Part shown: piece after piece, positions 57,282 through 63,736 of the stretch
Numbering within the stretch: the first letter of the stretch is position 1
Layout: each line of letters begins with the position of its first letter
Virus record (IMG/VR): IMGVR_UViG_3300013093_000023
Location: 1 to 64,000 of that record
DNA length: 64,000 bases
Reading direction: 5' to 3' (one strand)
Source: an uncultured virus (IMG/VR IMGVR_UViG_3300013093_000023)
Taxonomy: Duplodnaviria > Heunggongvirae > Uroviricota > Caudoviricetes
Made by a program: the position numbers and the translations under genes
Notes under the pieces: generated by a model
What the model was told of the DNA's origin: nothing
The model's input: only the letters and a program-made list of their open reading frames with translations
Databases searched by the model: none

Positions 57282-58136
57282 ATGGATACAAAACCAATTA
57301 ATCCTTTGGTCAAGCATTTTAGACGCCCAACAATTTATTTCAAATTACCAAGCAACGGACGTTTTTGGCCAGACGACGCACTAGATTTACCAGTAACTGG
57401 AGAAATCCCGGTTTATCCAATGACAGCCGGAGACGAAGTAACACTAAAAACTCCCGACGCACTAATGAACGGCAACGGTATAGTAGATGTTATTAAAAGC
57501 TGTTGTCCAAATATCAAAGACCCCTGGCAAACACCTAGCGTTGATGTTGACTCTATTTTGATTGCTATACGTGTTGCTAGTTATGGACAACTTATGCCTA
57601 TCAATGCCAAGTGCCCATATTGCGACCACGAGCACGATTATGATGCCGATTTATCAGTAGCCAGTAGCGGAATTAAATGCCCGGACTACGATACTACAAT
57701 TGAATTTAACGATTTAAAAATTAAACTACGTCCGCAAAAATATTTTAACGTAACTAAATCAAATATTATTAATTTTGAAGAACAACGTATAATCCAATCT
57801 TTACAAGATACTAGCATCACAGAAGAAGTTAGAAATGCTAAACTTAAAGAAAGTATGAGGAAAATAGTTGATTTAAACAATCAACTAATTGTTTCTGCTA
57901 CAGAATACATTGAAACAGATGATGGCTCTAGAGTAACCGACGAAGAGTTTATTAAAGAATTTTATCAAAACGCCGAAGCCCAGATTACTAGATTAATTGA
58001 AGCAAGATTAACCGCTATTGCTAATGAAGCCGCTATCCCACCATTTAAACTTAAATGCACAGAAACAGACTGTGGCAAAACATTTGAAGTACCAATGGAG
58101 TTTGACTACTCACGTTTTTTCGCGATCGGCTCTTAA
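57282..58136 (+). CDS. gp26: T4 gp26-like baseplate hub / tail assembly chaperone
   Basis: Reads on the PLUS strand (ATGGATACAAAACCA at 57282; the track label is wrong). LPS.G, PMT..DE..L, D.D.IL.AIR..SYG, CPYC and C....C Zn pairs, ends ..FFAIGS. Confidence 0.85.
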   Translation: MDTKPINPLVKHFRRPTIYFKLPSNGRFWPDDALDLPVTGEIPVYPMTAGDEVTLKTPDALMNGNGIVDVIKSCCPNIKDPWQTPSVDVDSILIAIRVASYGQLMPINAKCPYCDHEHDYDADLSVASSGIKCPDYDTTIEFNDLKIKLRPQKYFNVTKSNIINFEEQRIIQSLQDTSITEEVRNAKLKESMRKIVDLNNQLIVSATEYIETDDGSRVTDEEFIKEFYQNAEAQITRLIEARLTAIANEAAIPPFKLKCTETDCGKTFEVPMEFDYSRFFAIGS

Positions 58137-58351
58137 CACTCTCTAACGAGGAGACTATAGATCTCCTTAATCGTTACGAAAGAGATGCAAGGGCCGTTAA
58201 AGAAGAAGCACTTAAAATGAGTTGGTTTATGCGTGGTGGAATAAGCTACGACGAAGCTATGATGTTAAGTAATCAAGAGCGCGAGATTATTGCTAGTATT
58301 ATTAAGAAAAACATGGAAACCACTAAAGAATCGGGTTTACCATTCTTTTAG
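58115..58351 (+). CDS. gp51-like C-terminal frame, probably reached by -1 frameshift from gp26
   Basis: Not in ORF track. -1 frame: FFRDRLLTLSNEETIDLLNRYERDARAVKEEALKMSWFMRGGISYDEAMMLSNQEREIIASIIKKNMETTKESGLPFF*. Confidence 0.7.
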   Translation, partial: FFRDRLLTLSNEETIDLLNRYERDARAVKEEALKMSWFMRGGISYDEAMMLSNQEREIIASIIKKNMETTKESGLPFF

Positions 58352-58800
58352 AGTTTTATACTTTCGAGACTTACTACGTAAGTCTATTTCTTTCACTGCG
58401 TTCAGAAATTATTTTTTTTATTAGTGTTGTTCTAAGTATCATCCAGATTAATCAGTCACACTTTGCCCGCTAAAGGGGCAAAATGAAATTGTAGCATCAT
58501 CCGAGTAGCACAATCACTTAGCGTTACAACATTACAGAGGCGGTCGTCCGGTACCTCGAGTTGCGTCTTTATACGACGGCGGCACATATTCATACGCTAA
58601 CACAAATATGTACGTAGGGTTTTTCTCCCTTCTTTTAGCCTTTTCCTAAAATCTTTTCAAATAGCAAAACCGGTTCCGTAGGCATATCCGATCTTCGTCC
58701 TGTTAAGGATAGTTGCTAAGTGCTCATTACAGCGATGAGTCTTCCGTCCCTGCGATCCTAGATCCAGTTGTCTTAGGCACACGAGTTTGACCTGTGCTAG
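58352..58800 (-). ncRNA. Candidate large structured RNA/DNA element overlapping the 3' end of the GIY-YIG gene
   Basis: Longest non-coding gap in the window. About ten hairpins plus an 8-bp long-range helix CACTTAGC/GCTAAGTG. Family not recognised. Confidence 0.55.
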
Positions 58801-59257
58801 TCGTAACTGTGGACTTGGTGTCTAGTGAACTTATCTTGTTGATAATATGTGAGCCATGTACACGGACCTGTATGTGTCCGTTATAATAATCTTCTGTTTC
58901 TAATACTCTGCGAGCAAATTGTTCTCTCGCTTCAATGTAACTGCATTCTGCTTTGCTTGAGCAATAGTATAAGATTTCTCTACTAAAATTGTCAACGCCT
59001 AATGCTACTACATCTTTTGTTAATTCGGGACTTGAGCCATAATATGTTTGCCAATCACTGTCGATACTTCCACGTATCTTTTTTCTTTTCTTCTTACCGT
59101 TTTTAAGTTTTACCATACGATAAGTTGTTTTTTTAAAACGTGCTAATTTTTTTCCAATATATTTCCTGCCAGTTAGTTTATTTGTAATCAAATAAACAAA
59201 ACCAACACACGTTTCAGGTAAAGTTTCTACTACGGAATTTTCGAATAACCATGTCAT
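58727..59257 (-). CDS. GIY-YIG (Seg-like) nuclease-domain protein
   Basis: GFVYLITN...GRKYIGKK, SDWQTYYGSS, F.REIL..C, Y.EA.EQF...VL....YYNG.I. Confidence 0.85.
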   Translation of the reverse strand: MTWLFENSVVETLPETCVGFVYLITNKLTGRKYIGKKLARFKKTTYRMVKLKNGKKKRKKIRGSIDSDWQTYYGSSPELTKDVVALGVDNFSREILYYCSSKAECSYIEAREQFARRVLETEDYYNGHIQVRVHGSHIINKISSLDTKSTVTTSTGQTRVPKTTGSRIAGTEDSSL

Positions 59258-59290
59258 ATAGCATACTTAATTATGCCTCTTTCGCTATAT

Positions 59291-59734
59291 TCATAATTTT
59301 TCTCCGTAAATCCACCCTAATTGCTGTGTTCGATGTATCCAAGTAAAAATAGGAGTGGTAAACGACAGCTGCCATTCGCCATTCCAACCTAAATAATTGC
59401 TTTTTAAACTATCCCTACCGGTTGGGTAGTATGTAGCTTGGTACATAAAATCATCTAACTTGTAGCCCTCTATTTCTATAGGATGTATGTAAATTGCTTT
59501 GTCTGATACAATTTTGCCGTCATTAACAACAGTATCAGCATCAGTTTTATTAGTTAATCCAACACTGAGCACGTGTTTGCCGTCCTCTAGTGTAACATCA
59601 AAATTGTAAGTGAGCTGTTCTTTTAGTATGCCCTGATCCTGCAGGTTATCGTCGATCTTAATAAAAAACTCTGGCCAGCAATCGTCGTAGCCCTTAGGCT
59701 CTATAGTTAATCGAAACTGTAAATTAGTAGCCAT
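59291..59734 (-). CDS. Hypothetical beta-rich protein co-transcribed with the radical SAM genes
   Basis: ATG 59734 overlaps the end of the upstream radical SAM gene; ends YLGWNG.W.L.F..PIF.W.H. Confidence 0.7.
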   Translation of the reverse strand: MATNLQFRLTIEPKGYDDCWPEFFIKIDDNLQDQGILKEQLTYNFDVTLEDGKHVLSVGLTNKTDADTVVNDGKIVSDKAIYIHPIEIEGYKLDDFMYQATYYPTGRDSLKSNYLGWNGEWQLSFTTPIFTWIHRTQQLGWIYGEKL

Positions 59735-61028
59735 TTGATTCAAACCATTCTTGTAATACAGGAAACGCCGCCACAACACTATTCTTACGCATAGTATCTA
59801 ACTGCTTGAACTTTAACACACTAGCTCTAGCAAGGTCTACATCAACGTTGCCCGGCTCTAAACTACAAATTGCCGCTTCAATTTCTTTTATTAGATTTTC
59901 TAAAACATATTCTTTGTTTCTAAAGTTAGTTAGACCTTTAATACGATGATCGGTTAAAGCACGATAACGTTCTAATTGAGCCTGAAATTGTTTTTGTAAA
60001 GGTATTTTTATTGAATCGGGCAACAATTGAATCTGTTGCCACGGTGGATCAACAGCAAAATAACTGTTTAGTAAAAAGTCATTGTCATAGCACCAATCAA
60101 TTAATTGACTGTATTCTGTAATGGTCAACAGCGTTGGAACTGTGCGAACAACAAAATCTACATTGTCTGGAGCAGACATTTGAAACTCAGCTATGTTTAA
60201 TAGTATAGCATCTATGCTACTACCATAGCGTACATAGTTGTTGGATTCGCTGACTGTTTCTACACTCATACCAATCTCAACACGCTTAAACTTGGCTAGC
60301 TTATCCCACAGATCATCAATAGGATGCATACAGTTAGTAGTAAAACTAAAGCTAAAGTCTGTGCGATTATTGCTGACAAATAGGTCTATTAGTTGTCTAA
60401 ATCGCTTGTTTATAGTAGGCTCGCCGCCGATAATATGTAGGCTGAGTAAATCAGTAGTTAGTAGGGTTTGACAAAAGTTATTCCAAATGTCCTGATCATC
60501 AGTCCAATTAAGCCTGCGAGCATCTTTAGCCCAACCTAAGACTTTATAATCCTGTGCTAGTTTAAAGCTGGCATTTGGACTACACATAATACAGGATAAA
60601 TCACATTCGTTGCCCAGGCTCAAATGATAACTTGCTGGCTTTGTAACTGTAACACCATCATTGGCCAGACTGTATTCAAATGCGGCTCTGTGCGGGCTTT
60701 GTTCAAAACTCTTATAAAAATTCTTGTCGTAAAAAATAACACTCTTTAAGTTTTCTTTGATACGTTTACTGTGATTACCTATTGAGTCTTGATGTTGGCA
60801 AACACTGCAGGCAGGATTGGGCACATCTGACATCTTGCTTAATCGTTCATCACGTAACCTACGACTTTGCCAATACTCTGCCACAGGATAATTACGTATG
60901 TTCCACTCCCGAGCATCTGCCGTGTCGGTAATAAGCTCACTCATACAGCCACAAAGATCATAGCTACCATCGTGATTGATGTGTAGCTCGTACCAGGGTA
61001 TGTTACAAAATATATCTTTATTCGGCAT
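59724..61028 (-). CDS. Radical SAM enzyme with N-terminal SPASM/twitch-like Cys cluster
   Basis: CDLSCIMC (CxxxCxxC), GGEP, TTN; N-terminal FCNIPW...LCGC...CSVC. Confidence 0.9.
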   Translation of the reverse strand: MPNKDIFCNIPWYELHINHDGSYDLCGCMSELITDTADAREWNIRNYPVAEYWQSRRLRDERLSKMSDVPNPACSVCQHQDSIGNHSKRIKENLKSVIFYDKNFYKSFEQSPHRAAFEYSLANDGVTVTKPASYHLSLGNECDLSCIMCSPNASFKLAQDYKVLGWAKDARRLNWTDDQDIWNNFCQTLLTTDLLSLHIIGGEPTINKRFRQLIDLFVSNNRTDFSFSFTTNCMHPIDDLWDKLAKFKRVEIGMSVETVSESNNYVRYGSSIDAILLNIAEFQMSAPDNVDFVVRTVPTLLTITEYSQLIDWCYDNDFLLNSYFAVDPPWQQIQLLPDSIKIPLQKQFQAQLERYRALTDHRIKGLTNFRNKEYVLENLIKEIEAAICSLEPGNVDVDLARASVLKFKQLDTMRKNSVVAAFPVLQEWFESNGY

Positions 61029-62007
61029 TTTTACACTTTAGTTTACAAATATCTAGTGGTGCTATTTCAAAGCGTGTGTACATTTCGTCCCATAATGGAT
61101 CATTGATAATTTCAGTAAGTGTACGATGTTTAATTGACAACTGTTCTCGATGTTTTTCAAAGAAATCATTTTCCAAGTAACCTGAATTAAACCAAGGACA
61201 AGGAAATACATAACCATCTACATTGATAAACATAGGTATGTCCCAATTGGCACATCGAGCCCACGAGTGGCGTTGACGTGTTTCATAAAATATAACAGGG
61301 ATACCGCTTTTTAATTTTTCCTGCATAACTTCATACTTGCCTGTAGCAACCCATCCACCCACAGGCTTCAATGGGTCTACACCGTTGACAAGATACTGAT
61401 TGTCAAACTTTGTACTCAGTACAGCTTCAAATGTATCAAATTCTAATTCACGTGCTAGGTCTTGTATCCAGGGCATCTTATCTTCGTTAAACTTGAAATA
61501 GATAGCTGACCAATTCATTTGTGCCTTAGTTACTCGTCTTAAAGCACGAGCACCTGCTACAATTGAATCAAAGTCGCTGTTAACACGATACTGTTCATTA
61601 CTGGCCTGATCCCACCCGTCAACACTAAATGTAACTTTGTCATTGGGCCTTAGGTACATACCTAGTTCTTGCCACCACGCTTCGGGCTTGTAACTACCAT
61701 TAGTAACAATAATCAAGCTGACATTGAACCGTGATCGCTTAATGTACTCCACAATAGGTAAAAAGTCGCGAGCATATATAGGATCACCTATGTCGCCACA
61801 GAAAGTTATTTCCTGTATCTCTTTTAGTAGGTCCGGGGTAAAGGCACGCTGAAACTCTAATAGAGTAATTTCTTTGTTTAGGCTATCTGGATGTAACTCC
61901 GTGCGAGGGCATCGAGGGCATTTAAGCGTACACTTACTACTTAATTCGATGTGTATTCTACGATGACTCAGTAATCTCGACGTCGGTGTTGTAACTTGTA
62001 TATCCAT
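61018..62007 (-). CDS. Radical SAM enzyme with C-terminal SPASM/twitch domain
   Basis: IELSSKCTLKCPRC, CG..GDP, TNGS, FSVDG; C-terminal C......G...PC...C..KC. Confidence 0.9.
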   Translation of the reverse strand: MDIQVTTPTSRLLSHRRIHIELSSKCTLKCPRCPRTELHPDSLNKEITLLEFQRAFTPDLLKEIQEITFCGDIGDPIYARDFLPIVEYIKRSRFNVSLIIVTNGSYKPEAWWQELGMYLRPNDKVTFSVDGWDQASNEQYRVNSDFDSIVAGARALRRVTKAQMNWSAIYFKFNEDKMPWIQDLARELEFDTFEAVLSTKFDNQYLVNGVDPLKPVGGWVATGKYEVMQEKLKSGIPVIFYETRQRHSWARCANWDIPMFINVDGYVFPCPWFNSGYLENDFFEKHREQLSIKHRTLTEIINDPLWDEMYTRFEIAPLDICKLKCKNAE

Positions 62008-63736
62008 TTTCTTTAACTACGTGTAAGGTGTTGTTTACCCGACCCGACAATTCATCCTTGTGCGACACTAACCAAACACTCTTGTTACTGTCCCTTGACA
62101 TTTTCTTTAGTATAGATAGTGCGTTTTCTACACCCGAACTATCCATACCTGAGTCAACTAACTCATCAATGAATAACAGGTTAATAGGTTGATACAGGCT
62201 TTCCCAAACATCGCGGAATGCCCAGCTTAATGATAAAATTAAACGATTGCGTTCTCCGCGGCTTAGGTTATCAAAATCTAAATCACGCCCTAACTCGGTG
62301 ATTTCTACACTAAGGTCATTTAGGAATTTAACAGTATGCGGTAAACCAATACGATCTAAGTACTGCCCAAGGCGAGCATTTAGATAACTTAAATTTTGAT
62401 CAATAATACGTTTACGAATAAACGAATCTTTATTAGTCAACAGTTTAAGTAGGAACTCTTGATGATCACGCAGATTAGTTAATTCGTTCATGACATCATA
62501 GGTAATCTCTTCAATGCCCTGCTCGCTCATTTCGGCAATTTGTTCTGTGTAGGGATCTACTTCTGCTGACTTAGTTGCTAATTGTTGAATTAAATTATCA
62601 ACTGTGGCCTGGTGATGAATAGCATCTGACTCTCGATCGTAGAATGTTTCTGGACGTGGGCCTAGTTTGCCCAACCCATCGTGAGCAGACTGTAATTCAG
62701 CCAGTGTGGCAGCATGGGTTCTCTGATTTTCTTGTGCTGTTGATAAGTCTCTCTGCTTCTGTCCCAATACTTGTTGGTGCTTTTCGTCATGGAACTCTTG
62801 ACCGCAGGTATGGCACGTATGATTTTCCAGCGAAACGAGTTCTGTAGATATCTTTGCAATAGTTTTCTCTTCCCGAACAAGATCCATTTTCGTCCGACTA
62901 ATCGCCGACGATAATTCATTGATATCCTTTCGAGTTTGATCCCAGGTTTTAAACGCTTGGTGTGCCTGAATCTCGGCCTCGATGTCGATTTTCTGAAGCT
63001 CTTCAATTCCCGTCTGTAGTTTCTTAATCTCTTCTTCATGTTTCGTAGTCCACTGCGTTTGCCGACGTTTTAATGATTCTATTTGTTCTTCAATACGTTT
63101 GTTAGCATCGCCTACAGCTTTGATACGAAACTCTTCGGCTGTAATAGCTTCTTTAGTGGCTTTTGCTGTTTCTTTTAAACGATCAGCTTTTTCACTTAGT
63201 AGTGTAATACCCAACAGTTGTTCAATAATAGTACGTTGATCATTGGCTTTTAATGACAAGAACGGTTCTGTATAAGTGTTTAGAGCTACAATATGTTTGA
63301 ACATATCGTGACTCATACCCAGCATACGTTCTATTTCTTGCTGTGTTTCTCTTGAATCACCTTGGGCATCGTCTGTAATTTCTTTTTCTTGATCGCCTAC
63401 AAAGAACTTCATTACGTTAGGCTTACGCCCACGCTCAATTCTATATGTTTCGCCATCCTTTTCAAAATCAATAGTGACCATTAGGCCTTTGCTGTTGGTC
63501 TTATTAATTAAGTTATCTTTTTTAATGTTAGTCAAGGCATTGCCGTACATGGCAAAACTAAGAGCATTGATAATGGTTGTTTTACCTGTACCATTACGTG
63601 CGCCCGAGTCGTCTCCTCCTAGGTCCAAGTTTTCGCCCAAGACCAATGTTAGGTCTCGACGATCAAAATCTACAGCCTGAGTAATATTACCCACGCTCAT
63701 AAAGTTTTTAACTGTGAGTGTTTTTATTTTAAACAT
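61958..63736 (-). CDS. gp46: Recombination endonuclease ATPase subunit (SbcC/Rad50-like)
   Basis: KNFMSVGN, Walker A NGTGKTT, CHTC hook, LSRGE signature, LFIDE, VSH. Confidence 0.95.
   Translation of the reverse strand: MFKIKTLTVKNFMSVGNITQAVDFDRRDLTLVLGENLDLGGDDSGARNGTGKTTIINALSFAMYGNALTNIKKDNLINKTNSKGLMVTIDFEKDGETYRIERGRKPNVMKFFVGDQEKEITDDAQGDSRETQQEIERMLGMSHDMFKHIVALNTYTEPFLSLKANDQRTIIEQLLGITLLSEKADRLKETAKATKEAITAEEFRIKAVGDANKRIEEQIESLKRRQTQWTTKHEEEIKKLQTGIEELQKIDIEAEIQAHQAFKTWDQTRKDINELSSAISRTKMDLVREEKTIAKISTELVSLENHTCHTCGQEFHDEKHQQVLGQKQRDLSTAQENQRTHAATLAELQSAHDGLGKLGPRPETFYDRESDAIHHQATVDNLIQQLATKSAEVDPYTEQIAEMSEQGIEEITYDVMNELTNLRDHQEFLLKLLTNKDSFIRKRIIDQNLSYLNARLGQYLDRIGLPHTVKFLNDLSVEITELGRDLDFDNLSRGERNRLILSLSWAFRDVWESLYQPINLLFIDELVDSGMDSSGVENALSILKKMSRDSNKSVWLVSHKDELSGRVNNTLHVVKENGYTSYNTDVEITESS

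Follow-up and report, generated by a model that had tools for sequence, protein, structure and literature searches.

The TnpB and IscB systems combine a nuclease carrying a RuvC or HNH domain with an RNA encoded beside the nuclease gene, and in ColE1 a segment of the RNA re-pairs with the template further downstream. According to parts of PMC5043065, the ColE1 RNA of 550 nt forms a persistent hybrid, and helicase is loaded on the displaced strand; sections of PMC5043065 and PMC5935869 describe a pre-primer with a downstream single-strand initiation site. Hairpins of the type GCGNAGC/GCGNNAGC are far more stable as DNA than as RNA, and DNA mini-hairpins are known at the G4 and ssiA priming sites and at N4 promoters (PMC13037366, in part). 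The Polynucleobacter-1 RNA motif is listed as a possible cis-regulator (Weinberg et al., 2010; PMC2864571); the part of that paper considered here gives it no function, and gene context or extensions may stand in its supplement.

The locus described here lies in a window of 64,000 nt at the start of a viral contig of 124.5 kb with a completeness of ~34%, whose source is a T4-like large phage (portal PF07230, baseplate PF12322, SbcC/gp46-like ATPase) with relatives having genomes of up to 316–347 kb. The window has, as the original prediction stated, a single long non-coding gap, the only one exceeding 150 nt between open reading frames of at least 60 aa, contig start excepted. Here lies a conserved, heavily folded large phage RNA element, catalogued only in part; it occupies ~440 nt at 58365..58802 of the minus strand and is present in single copy in genomes G000, G003, and G004. 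The same strand carries, at 58727..59257, the gene for a single-domain GIY-YIG nuclease (PF19835 SegE_GIY-YIG, E 4e-31; phrog_447), whose conserved part (58832-59257, 142 aa) is followed by a 34-codon tail running into the RNA (58727..58831, minus strand). Upstream of it, also on the minus strand and in a recombination operon context, is a gp46/SbcC-like ATPase gene (61958..63736). Two radical SAM/SPASM genes are located between gp46 and the nuclease (59724-62007, minus strand), in an interval where insertions vary from one relative to another. Convergent with the element are a gp26-like baseplate gene (57282-58136, plus strand) and a small gp51-like frame ending at 58351, the pair spanning 57282..58351; a TTTTTTC run is seen at 58115-58121 (plus strand), near the end of the gp26-like gene, and the gp51-like frame is open across it. 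These neighbors are not constant, the first downstream genes of 112 loci falling into 24 different clusters. In G000, the coding strand and the AT skew switch at ~65,900, 7 kb from the element. Genomes G001–G005 each have a stand-alone frame of 175–195 aa matching part of DNA polymerase III alpha, plus a full Pol B.

The 5′ domain of the element, 58659-58802 (minus strand), is Polynucleobacter-1 (RF01718), scoring 116.7 bits against a cut-off of 37 in the Rfam scan and covering full model positions 1-141. The original prediction of an undescribed element is thus contradicted for the 5′ third (144 nt), the remaining ~290 nt being outside the Rfam model. The 141-nt model describes the exchangeable 5′ domain only (here called type A), while the ~290-nt conserved core, the repeats, and the hairpins are beyond its reach; in relatives, the 5′ domain is exchanged for unrelated sequence (types B and C). 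The model is passed by 15/15 tested type A relatives and missed by types B and C. A search of the literature outside subscription papers yielded no description of the full element; nor were the matching direct repeats, the switch from RNA loops to DNA mini-hairpins, or the link to cow-rumen-2 (see below) found described there, although supplements may differ. Blastn with the element gives no match in cultured phages, and the element models have none beside the resolvase of PA5oct, SCTP-2, and Phosso (best E 0.25). In the bacterial genome collection there are 19 pattern matches and 5 strong model matches, all on short MAG contigs and 3 with GIY-YIG; these are probably binned phage DNA. ARAGORN reports 0 tRNA or tmRNA genes in the window, and it contains no tRNA-like Rfam match.

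Single-sequence folding is unremarkable (MFE z −1.0 for the minus strand and −0.65 for the plus strand), therefore homologues were tested. The stems listed in the original prediction are all exact reverse complements (10/10). The covariation set comprises 90 non-redundant type A elements, 56–89% identical to the window, and was analyzed by our own simplified R-scape-like procedure with the threshold set at the highest score of 20 tree-based null alignments. Above all 20 nulls are 36 column pairs, 30 of them Watson–Crick or GU in at least 88% of sequences; 17 of these 30 significant canonical pairs fall outside the Rfam model, and covariation in the 90 homologues carries the fold out to ~58365. 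Three of the top signals reflect identity between direct repeats 58 nt apart, not base pairing. In the 190-nt core, 38 named pairs were followed in 37 sequences; 92.9% are paired and 25 pairs are changed on both sides, while 0/500 shuffles score as high and slid controls give 35–47%. Over 33 helix positions in the 90 homologues, G-U exceeds A-C by 186:27, hence the minus strand is the folding strand, as had been suggested from the G-U extensions of the stems.

Three pseudoknots are supported. The 5′ domain holds an H-type pseudoknot (58802-58778; supported pair 58801:58790) and the helix 58718-13/58662-67, as well as a covarying U-C/C-U pair at 58709/58697. The core (58518..58630, minus strand) consists of a hairpin at 58630-16; a hairpin at 58612-58583 with the loop 58600-594 paired to 58524-18; GUYRU at 58577-73 paired to AYRAC at 58547-43; the helices 58563-60/58527-30 and 58557-54/58537-40 (minus strand); and the near-invariant motifs CCGU and GGUA..GG..ACCGCC. 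The 8-bp long-range helix proposed earlier is not borne out: its pairs 58722-20/58515-17 are kept in 84–87 of 88 sequences without compensatory change, its two middle pairs hold in 26/90 only, and 58518-24 forms a pseudoknot with the loop 58594-600. The arm considered as its alternative, 58718-13/58662-67, is a conserved helix (89–90 of 90, compensatory); with this helix conserved and 58518-24 engaged in the pseudoknot, the proposed switch-like pairing is unsupported. GGAUGAU at 58438-44 and 58496-502 and CUGA at 58452-55 were verified in position, but the likeness to box C/D k-turns fails, as AUAA replaces AUGA in 51/122 loci and CUGA is not conserved. A/T-rich insertions of 30–90 nt are seen in L004, L012, L029, L088, and L245 at one fixed core point, after ACCGCC; a number of them contain small tandem repeats, e.g., ACTATAGTCA. 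In L093 and L146, the type B element is immediately preceded on its 5′ side by short tandem repeats that include TAGGCAC, and type B elements often have AGGCA(A/C) at their 5′ edge.

The direct repeats are ACTCGGATGAT (copy 1, 58496..58506) and ATCTGGATGAT (copy 2, 58438..58448), both on the minus strand, and between them is a hairpin followed by the conserved AGTGTGAC (58462..58482, minus strand). The 7-nt variable part is identical in the two copies within a locus in 122/122 type A and B loci, with eight variants observed and 20 identities expected if the copies were independent; this count is inflated by kinship and shared ancestry. The variants are scattered over the nuclease tree, and the nearest GIY-YIG neighbor has the same variant in 66/115. 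A complementary partner for the repeats has no fixed position in the fetched flanks of 69 loci, and elsewhere the repeat motifs give a few scattered matches per genome. Type C elements, inspected by eye, keep the repeat–hairpin–repeat layout with other sequences.

Next to repeat copy 2 is an A/T-rich linker of varying length (58409..58436, minus strand), where many relatives have a GCTTCGC hairpin (GCGAAGC on the other strand); G+C is 27% for 58352-58435 vs. 45% for 58436-58810. It is followed by a hairpin with an internal GA-rich loop and a GNA/GNNA cap, of DNA mini-hairpin type (58387..58408, minus strand), and by an 8-bp hairpin with a c-GTA-g triloop (58367..58385, minus strand); read on the plus strand, this last hairpin has a terminator-like score. 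The DNA-type mini-hairpins covary. Among the 3-bp-stem hairpins of 89/90 type A sequences, a crude count gives GNRA 74, UNCG 8, and GNA triloop 32 for the 5′ part (374 nt), and GNA triloop 64, its complement 38, and GNRA 9 for the 3′ part (93 nt), so that the GNRA/UNCG loops predominating up to repeat 2 give way beyond it to c-GNA-g, its complement, and GNYA. The penultimate hairpin is capped by GNYA in 30 and by GNRA in 32 cases. The 347 kb of G004 contain a single c-GNA-g hairpin whose stem has 7 bp or more, and it lies at the element; there are two long-stem ones in G000 (one at the element) and three in G003 (none at the element).

A protein search gave 80 GIY-YIG loci out of 598 candidates, and the element is on the same strand in 77/80 (71 by nhmmer, 6 more by covariance model). 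Two of the other three are truncated 163 nt or less from the stop, and the third, L076, is a GIY-YIG gene in a complete 164-kb genome with no element match. Among element-first loci with at least 2.4 kb upstream, a same-strand GIY-YIG gene is present in 60/63; the three exceptions have a PF24608 PD-(D/E)XK nuclease (two loci, the RNA being of type A in one and of type B in the other) and a MazG-like gene (one). The start of the RNA varies in homologous loci from ~12 nt before the nuclease stop to 1.2 kb after it, and about one tenth of the loci have unrelated inserted genes of 230–360 aa that separate the element from the nuclease. The overlap of the reading frame with the RNA, one of the observations behind the original prediction, is real here, but the tail is private to this genome: 0/80 homologues have it, all ending at 141–150 aa.

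The PD-(D/E)XK nuclease has the element directly downstream in 30/38 PF24608 loci, which include many near-duplicates and 5 loci used in model training, and no GIY-YIG gene is found within the fetched flanks (up to 3 kb) of the 38. In PHROGs, the PF24608 protein is a RusA-like Holliday junction resolvase (phrog_244). Among 17 genomes searched, one has the PD-(D/E)XK nuclease, namely the one without GIY-YIG, and no genome has both. RuvC and RusA were not found in G001–G004; Endonuclease VII is seen in 0/5 genomes, with the control also silent. In L269, L276, and L278, long hairpin-rich non-coding tracts downstream of the PD-(D/E)XK gene are missed by the element models; the L269 tract has a repeat pair and GNA hairpins, hence further RNA types probably exist.

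All six inspected cultured phages with GIY-YIG lack both a long gap and the element. The Sinorhizobium phage Phosso (PV764938.1; L389, 986-2001) has no annotated genes over the ~1 kb separating its Holliday junction resolvase gene from an RNase HI gene; this is a hairpin-rich tract with GCGAAGC-type and long c-GAA-g hairpins and no element-model match, which is possibly an analogue of the element in a cultured phage. The Pseudomonas phage PA5oct (NC_071039.1; L387, 981-2495) has, between the baseplate hub side and the resolvase, a stretch with tiny open reading frames only, a perfect TTGACA-17-TATAAT promoter, and long hairpins; this is the syntenic position of the element, with no sequence match, and the four ncRNAs seen by RNA-seq in PA5oct lie elsewhere.

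RNA types A and B are intermingled on the GIY-YIG tree, a quick tree with many open forks; proteins of different RNA type can be as much as 96% identical, while nearest tree neighbors share the RNA type in 108/115 cases; the mean GIY-YIG identity is 73.5% within an RNA type vs. 73.7% across types. Inspection of the alignment reveals no guide-like variable segment. The locus resembles TnpB/IscB–omegaRNA loci in having a nuclease gene beside a structured RNA on the same strand, but differs from them in that the protein has the PF19835 GIY-YIG domain only, the overlap is not conserved, the RNA is shared with another nuclease fold, and the element has no guide or transposon features. The original prediction of a nuclease–RNA unit holds as far as a covarying structured RNA tightly linked to the gene (60/63) is concerned; the partnership of the two, on the TnpB/omegaRNA model, is unsupported, given the private overlap, the RNA behind PD-(D/E)XK and MazG-like genes, and GIY-YIG relatives, both close and distant, without the element. 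A retron was also considered and rejected: the reverse transcriptase PF00078 is found in 0/5 genomes, and the control was detected in 3/14.

An alignment-based model of the nuclease (pLDDT 95) has a GIY-YIG domain and a basic beta-hairpin. Its best structural match is the I-TevI catalytic domain (Z 8.2, rmsd 2.8, 83 aligned), and the match to Slx1 (Z ~3) is below those to I-TevI, UvrC, and T4 EndoII. Foldseek gives no match at E 0.001 and the single-sequence fold is poor; sequence search of solved structures retrieves nothing for either the GIY-YIG or the PD-(D/E)XK nuclease. The family phrog_447 is labeled “NAD synthetase” in PHROGs and in many phage records; according to Pfam and to the structure model, it is a family of GIY-YIG nucleases. 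Free-standing homing endonucleases have a sporadic distribution and a separate DNA-binding domain. A SegE-type homing endonuclease was rejected, since each of 494 records of cultured phages has this family at a single place, and its members, of 141–150 aa, have only the catalytic domain and the beta-hairpin. From the genomic context we infer that the GIY-YIG protein is a conserved stand-alone branched-DNA nuclease, neither a selfish gene nor an RNA partner, and by the same context it probably fills the junction-resolvase slot of the gp47–gp46 operon.

Just before the start codon is the motif ATAA(N)TA (59268..59275, minus strand), a variant of the ATAAATA preceding structural genes; TAA.TA is present within 40 nt of the start in 93/115 homologues. 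By comparison with the T4 late promoter consensus we call the motif late-type, and, judged from sequence, it is probably a promoter for a joint transcript of nuclease and RNA. An internal sigma-70 promoter (58995-58966, 11/12) was discarded as not conserved, 10/12 being reached in 12/110 homologues.

The Rfam family cow-rumen-2 (RF02947) scores 19.5 bits on the core in the window, below its cut-off of 66, and 14.1 in L279. A 16-mer of its consensus retrieves 86 stretches, 19/20 of those tested passing the RF02947 cut-off, and also occurs in one type A locus, L365. The cow-rumen-2 loci are units of ~400 nt with a promoter-like motif and varied non-nuclease neighbors, with 3–4 copies per complete genome of 411–424 kb. 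Shared with our element are a UAGC-loop hairpin, GCCGYCAU, the GGAGUACAGGAUGACC core, a hairpin flanked by short repeats, and the ~400-nt unit; in contrast to it, cow-rumen-2 is multi-copy, has its own promoter-like motif and no nuclease neighbor, and mostly lacks the mini-hairpins (8/30 have one). Measured by the longest repeat, cow-rumen-2 loci do not exceed shuffled sequences. Model R1, built on type A only, hits 3/15 cow-rumen-2 loci in the right place at E 0.03–0.9 and 0/13 decoys; model R2, for which some training loci had been chosen through the shared 16-mer, hits 2/15 and 0/15 decoys; in whole-genome searches, the best match is on a cow-rumen-2 copy in 2/3 genomes (E 0.57 and 0.99). 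None of these matches is significant, and homology of the two is a weak lead. In the literature searched, cow-rumen-2 appears only in two Rfam 15 listings.

Tentatively, with a probability of about 0.45, we read the element as a site acting in cis where replication of the phage DNA is started or restarted from an RNA primer, in the manner of ColE1 RNA II, because of the order of its parts: folded RNA (a ~370-nt pseudoknotted minus-strand fold), repeat pair (co-varying, around a hairpin), A/T-rich linker, and DNA-type mini-hairpins. The RNA would form the 3′ portion of the transcript that carries the nuclease gene; the folded core would keep the 3′ RNA hybridized to the template, as in ColE1 RNA II; the repeats would bind a phage protein twice, or let the RNA of copy 1 pair again with the template at copy 2; and the displaced strand would expose the mini-hairpins for loading of primase or helicase. 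The GIY-YIG nuclease may act at the site of the element. The evidence in its favor is the DNA-type loop shift, the repeat identity in 122/122 loci, the single copy per genome, the ColE1-like order and size, the fact that the other occupant of the nuclease slot is annotated as a Holliday junction resolvase and shares no genome with GIY-YIG, and the absence of RuvC and RusA from G001–G004. The second idea of the original prediction, a structured primer RNA for replication, is the one that fits best, unproven as it is. The likeness to ColE1 RNA II extends to several hundred nucleotides of folded RNA followed by DNA hairpins on the would-be displaced strand, while the differences are a Pol B and a helicase encoded by the phage itself, the lack of RNase HI, and no identified antisense RNA; no sequence likeness is expected. 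As regards a counterpart of the antisense RNA I, a consensus scan of the window gives no plus-strand promoter over the element.

Several observations count against a replication site. In two near-complete genomes, the cumulative GC skew passes the element without switching, and after correction for coding bias no strand preference is left at fourfold-degenerate sites. A promoter motif of late-type appearance, as seen here, would not be expected for a first origin. The element of G003 is without the long c-GNA-g hairpin, one element stands behind a non-nuclease gene, and the possibly related cow-rumen-2 is multi-copy, with a mini-hairpin in 8/30 only. The T4-like polymerase and helicase are located far from the element, and a phage RNase HI is found in none of the five genomes searched (0 in 5/5).

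A rather doubtful alternative is a free trans-acting large ncRNA, GOLLD/ROOL-like in kind, cut out of the nuclease transcript or ending it, for which the repeats would be two sites for a non-nuclease phage protein and the 3′ hairpins would only end transcription between the convergent genes. The dense tertiary-type conservation (U-C/C-U pair 58709/58697, three pseudoknots) and the terminator-like score of the last hairpin on the plus strand agree with it, as do the cow-rumen-2 loci with their own promoter-like motif, ~400-nt unit, 3–4 copies, and no nuclease; however, the homology to cow-rumen-2 is not significant, the element holds one genomic position, and the triloop and GNYA caps are DNA-type, not RNA-type. 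An improbable alternative is a late DNA-processing site, where transcription would open the DNA and the small nuclease encoded upstream would cut the extruded hairpins or junctions, either launching recombination-dependent replication or resolving concatemers for packaging. The alternation of two unrelated nucleases in the slot (60/63; 30/38) with varying downstream genes and the late-type promoter motif are in its favor, and the Ssn nucleases, which are also small single-domain GIY-YIG proteins beside hairpin DNA, cut hairpin ssDNA near their own genes (PMC11893778, in part). Yet Ssn belong to another GIY-YIG clade (cd10448, a cultured relative of this GIY-YIG being annotated cd10444), and the hairpins here are single-copy and part of a large RNA-coding element; moreover, the GIY-YIG family occurs without the element and the repeat variants do not follow the nuclease type.

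A specific, possibly RNA-guided, ribonucleoprotein of GIY-YIG and RNA, as the original prediction had it, is very unlikely. Tight linkage, probable co-transcription, and a long Lys/Arg-rich beta-hairpin (residues 40-66), with no invariant Arg among the conserved residues, could be cited for it, but this basic hairpin belongs to the consensus of 82 family members, the overlap is private, the 5′ domain is swapped between proteins 92–96% identical, and the same RNA types stand behind the PD-(D/E)XK fold; the equal protein identity within and across RNA types (73.5% vs. 73.7%) gives no sign of co-evolution, and the single-copy element has neither a guide-like segment nor mobility. Equally improbable is a cis-regulatory 3′ element controlling stability, termination, or translation of the nuclease/recombination operon transcript, despite the position at the operon end and the listing of Polynucleobacter-1 as a possible cis-regulator (PMC2864571, in part): it leaves the DNA-type hairpins unexplained, and the unrelated genes of 230–360 aa come between nuclease and element in ~1/10 loci. 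GUY can pair with either 58567-65 or 58545-43 in 89–90 of 90 sequences, an alternative pairing that would suit such a regulator; being nearly invariant, it cannot derive support from covariation.

Extended beyond this locus, the replication-site reading would have three parts: T4-like jumbo phages build an R-loop replication or restart site with a modular multi-pseudoknot RNA, having swappable 5′ domains, DNA mini-hairpins, and a repeat pair threading the RNA back onto the template; Polynucleobacter-1 and cow-rumen-2 are fragments of one superfamily; and the PF19835 GIY-YIG proteins are an unrecognized class of phage junction resolvase. That all three hold jointly is unlikely. The element is most likely not TnpB-like and acts on its own DNA. 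If the replication-site reading is true, a 15-year-old orphan RNA motif gains its full length and a testable job, and the locus illustrates a possible mode of replication start or restart in very large phages whose skew signal is unclear. A function is also suggested for a nuclease family that goes under a wrong name in hundreds of genomes from cyanophages and other T4-like phages. Should the origin reading fail, the RNA, with its 440 nt, three pseudoknots, and naturally swapped domains, is still a good structural target.
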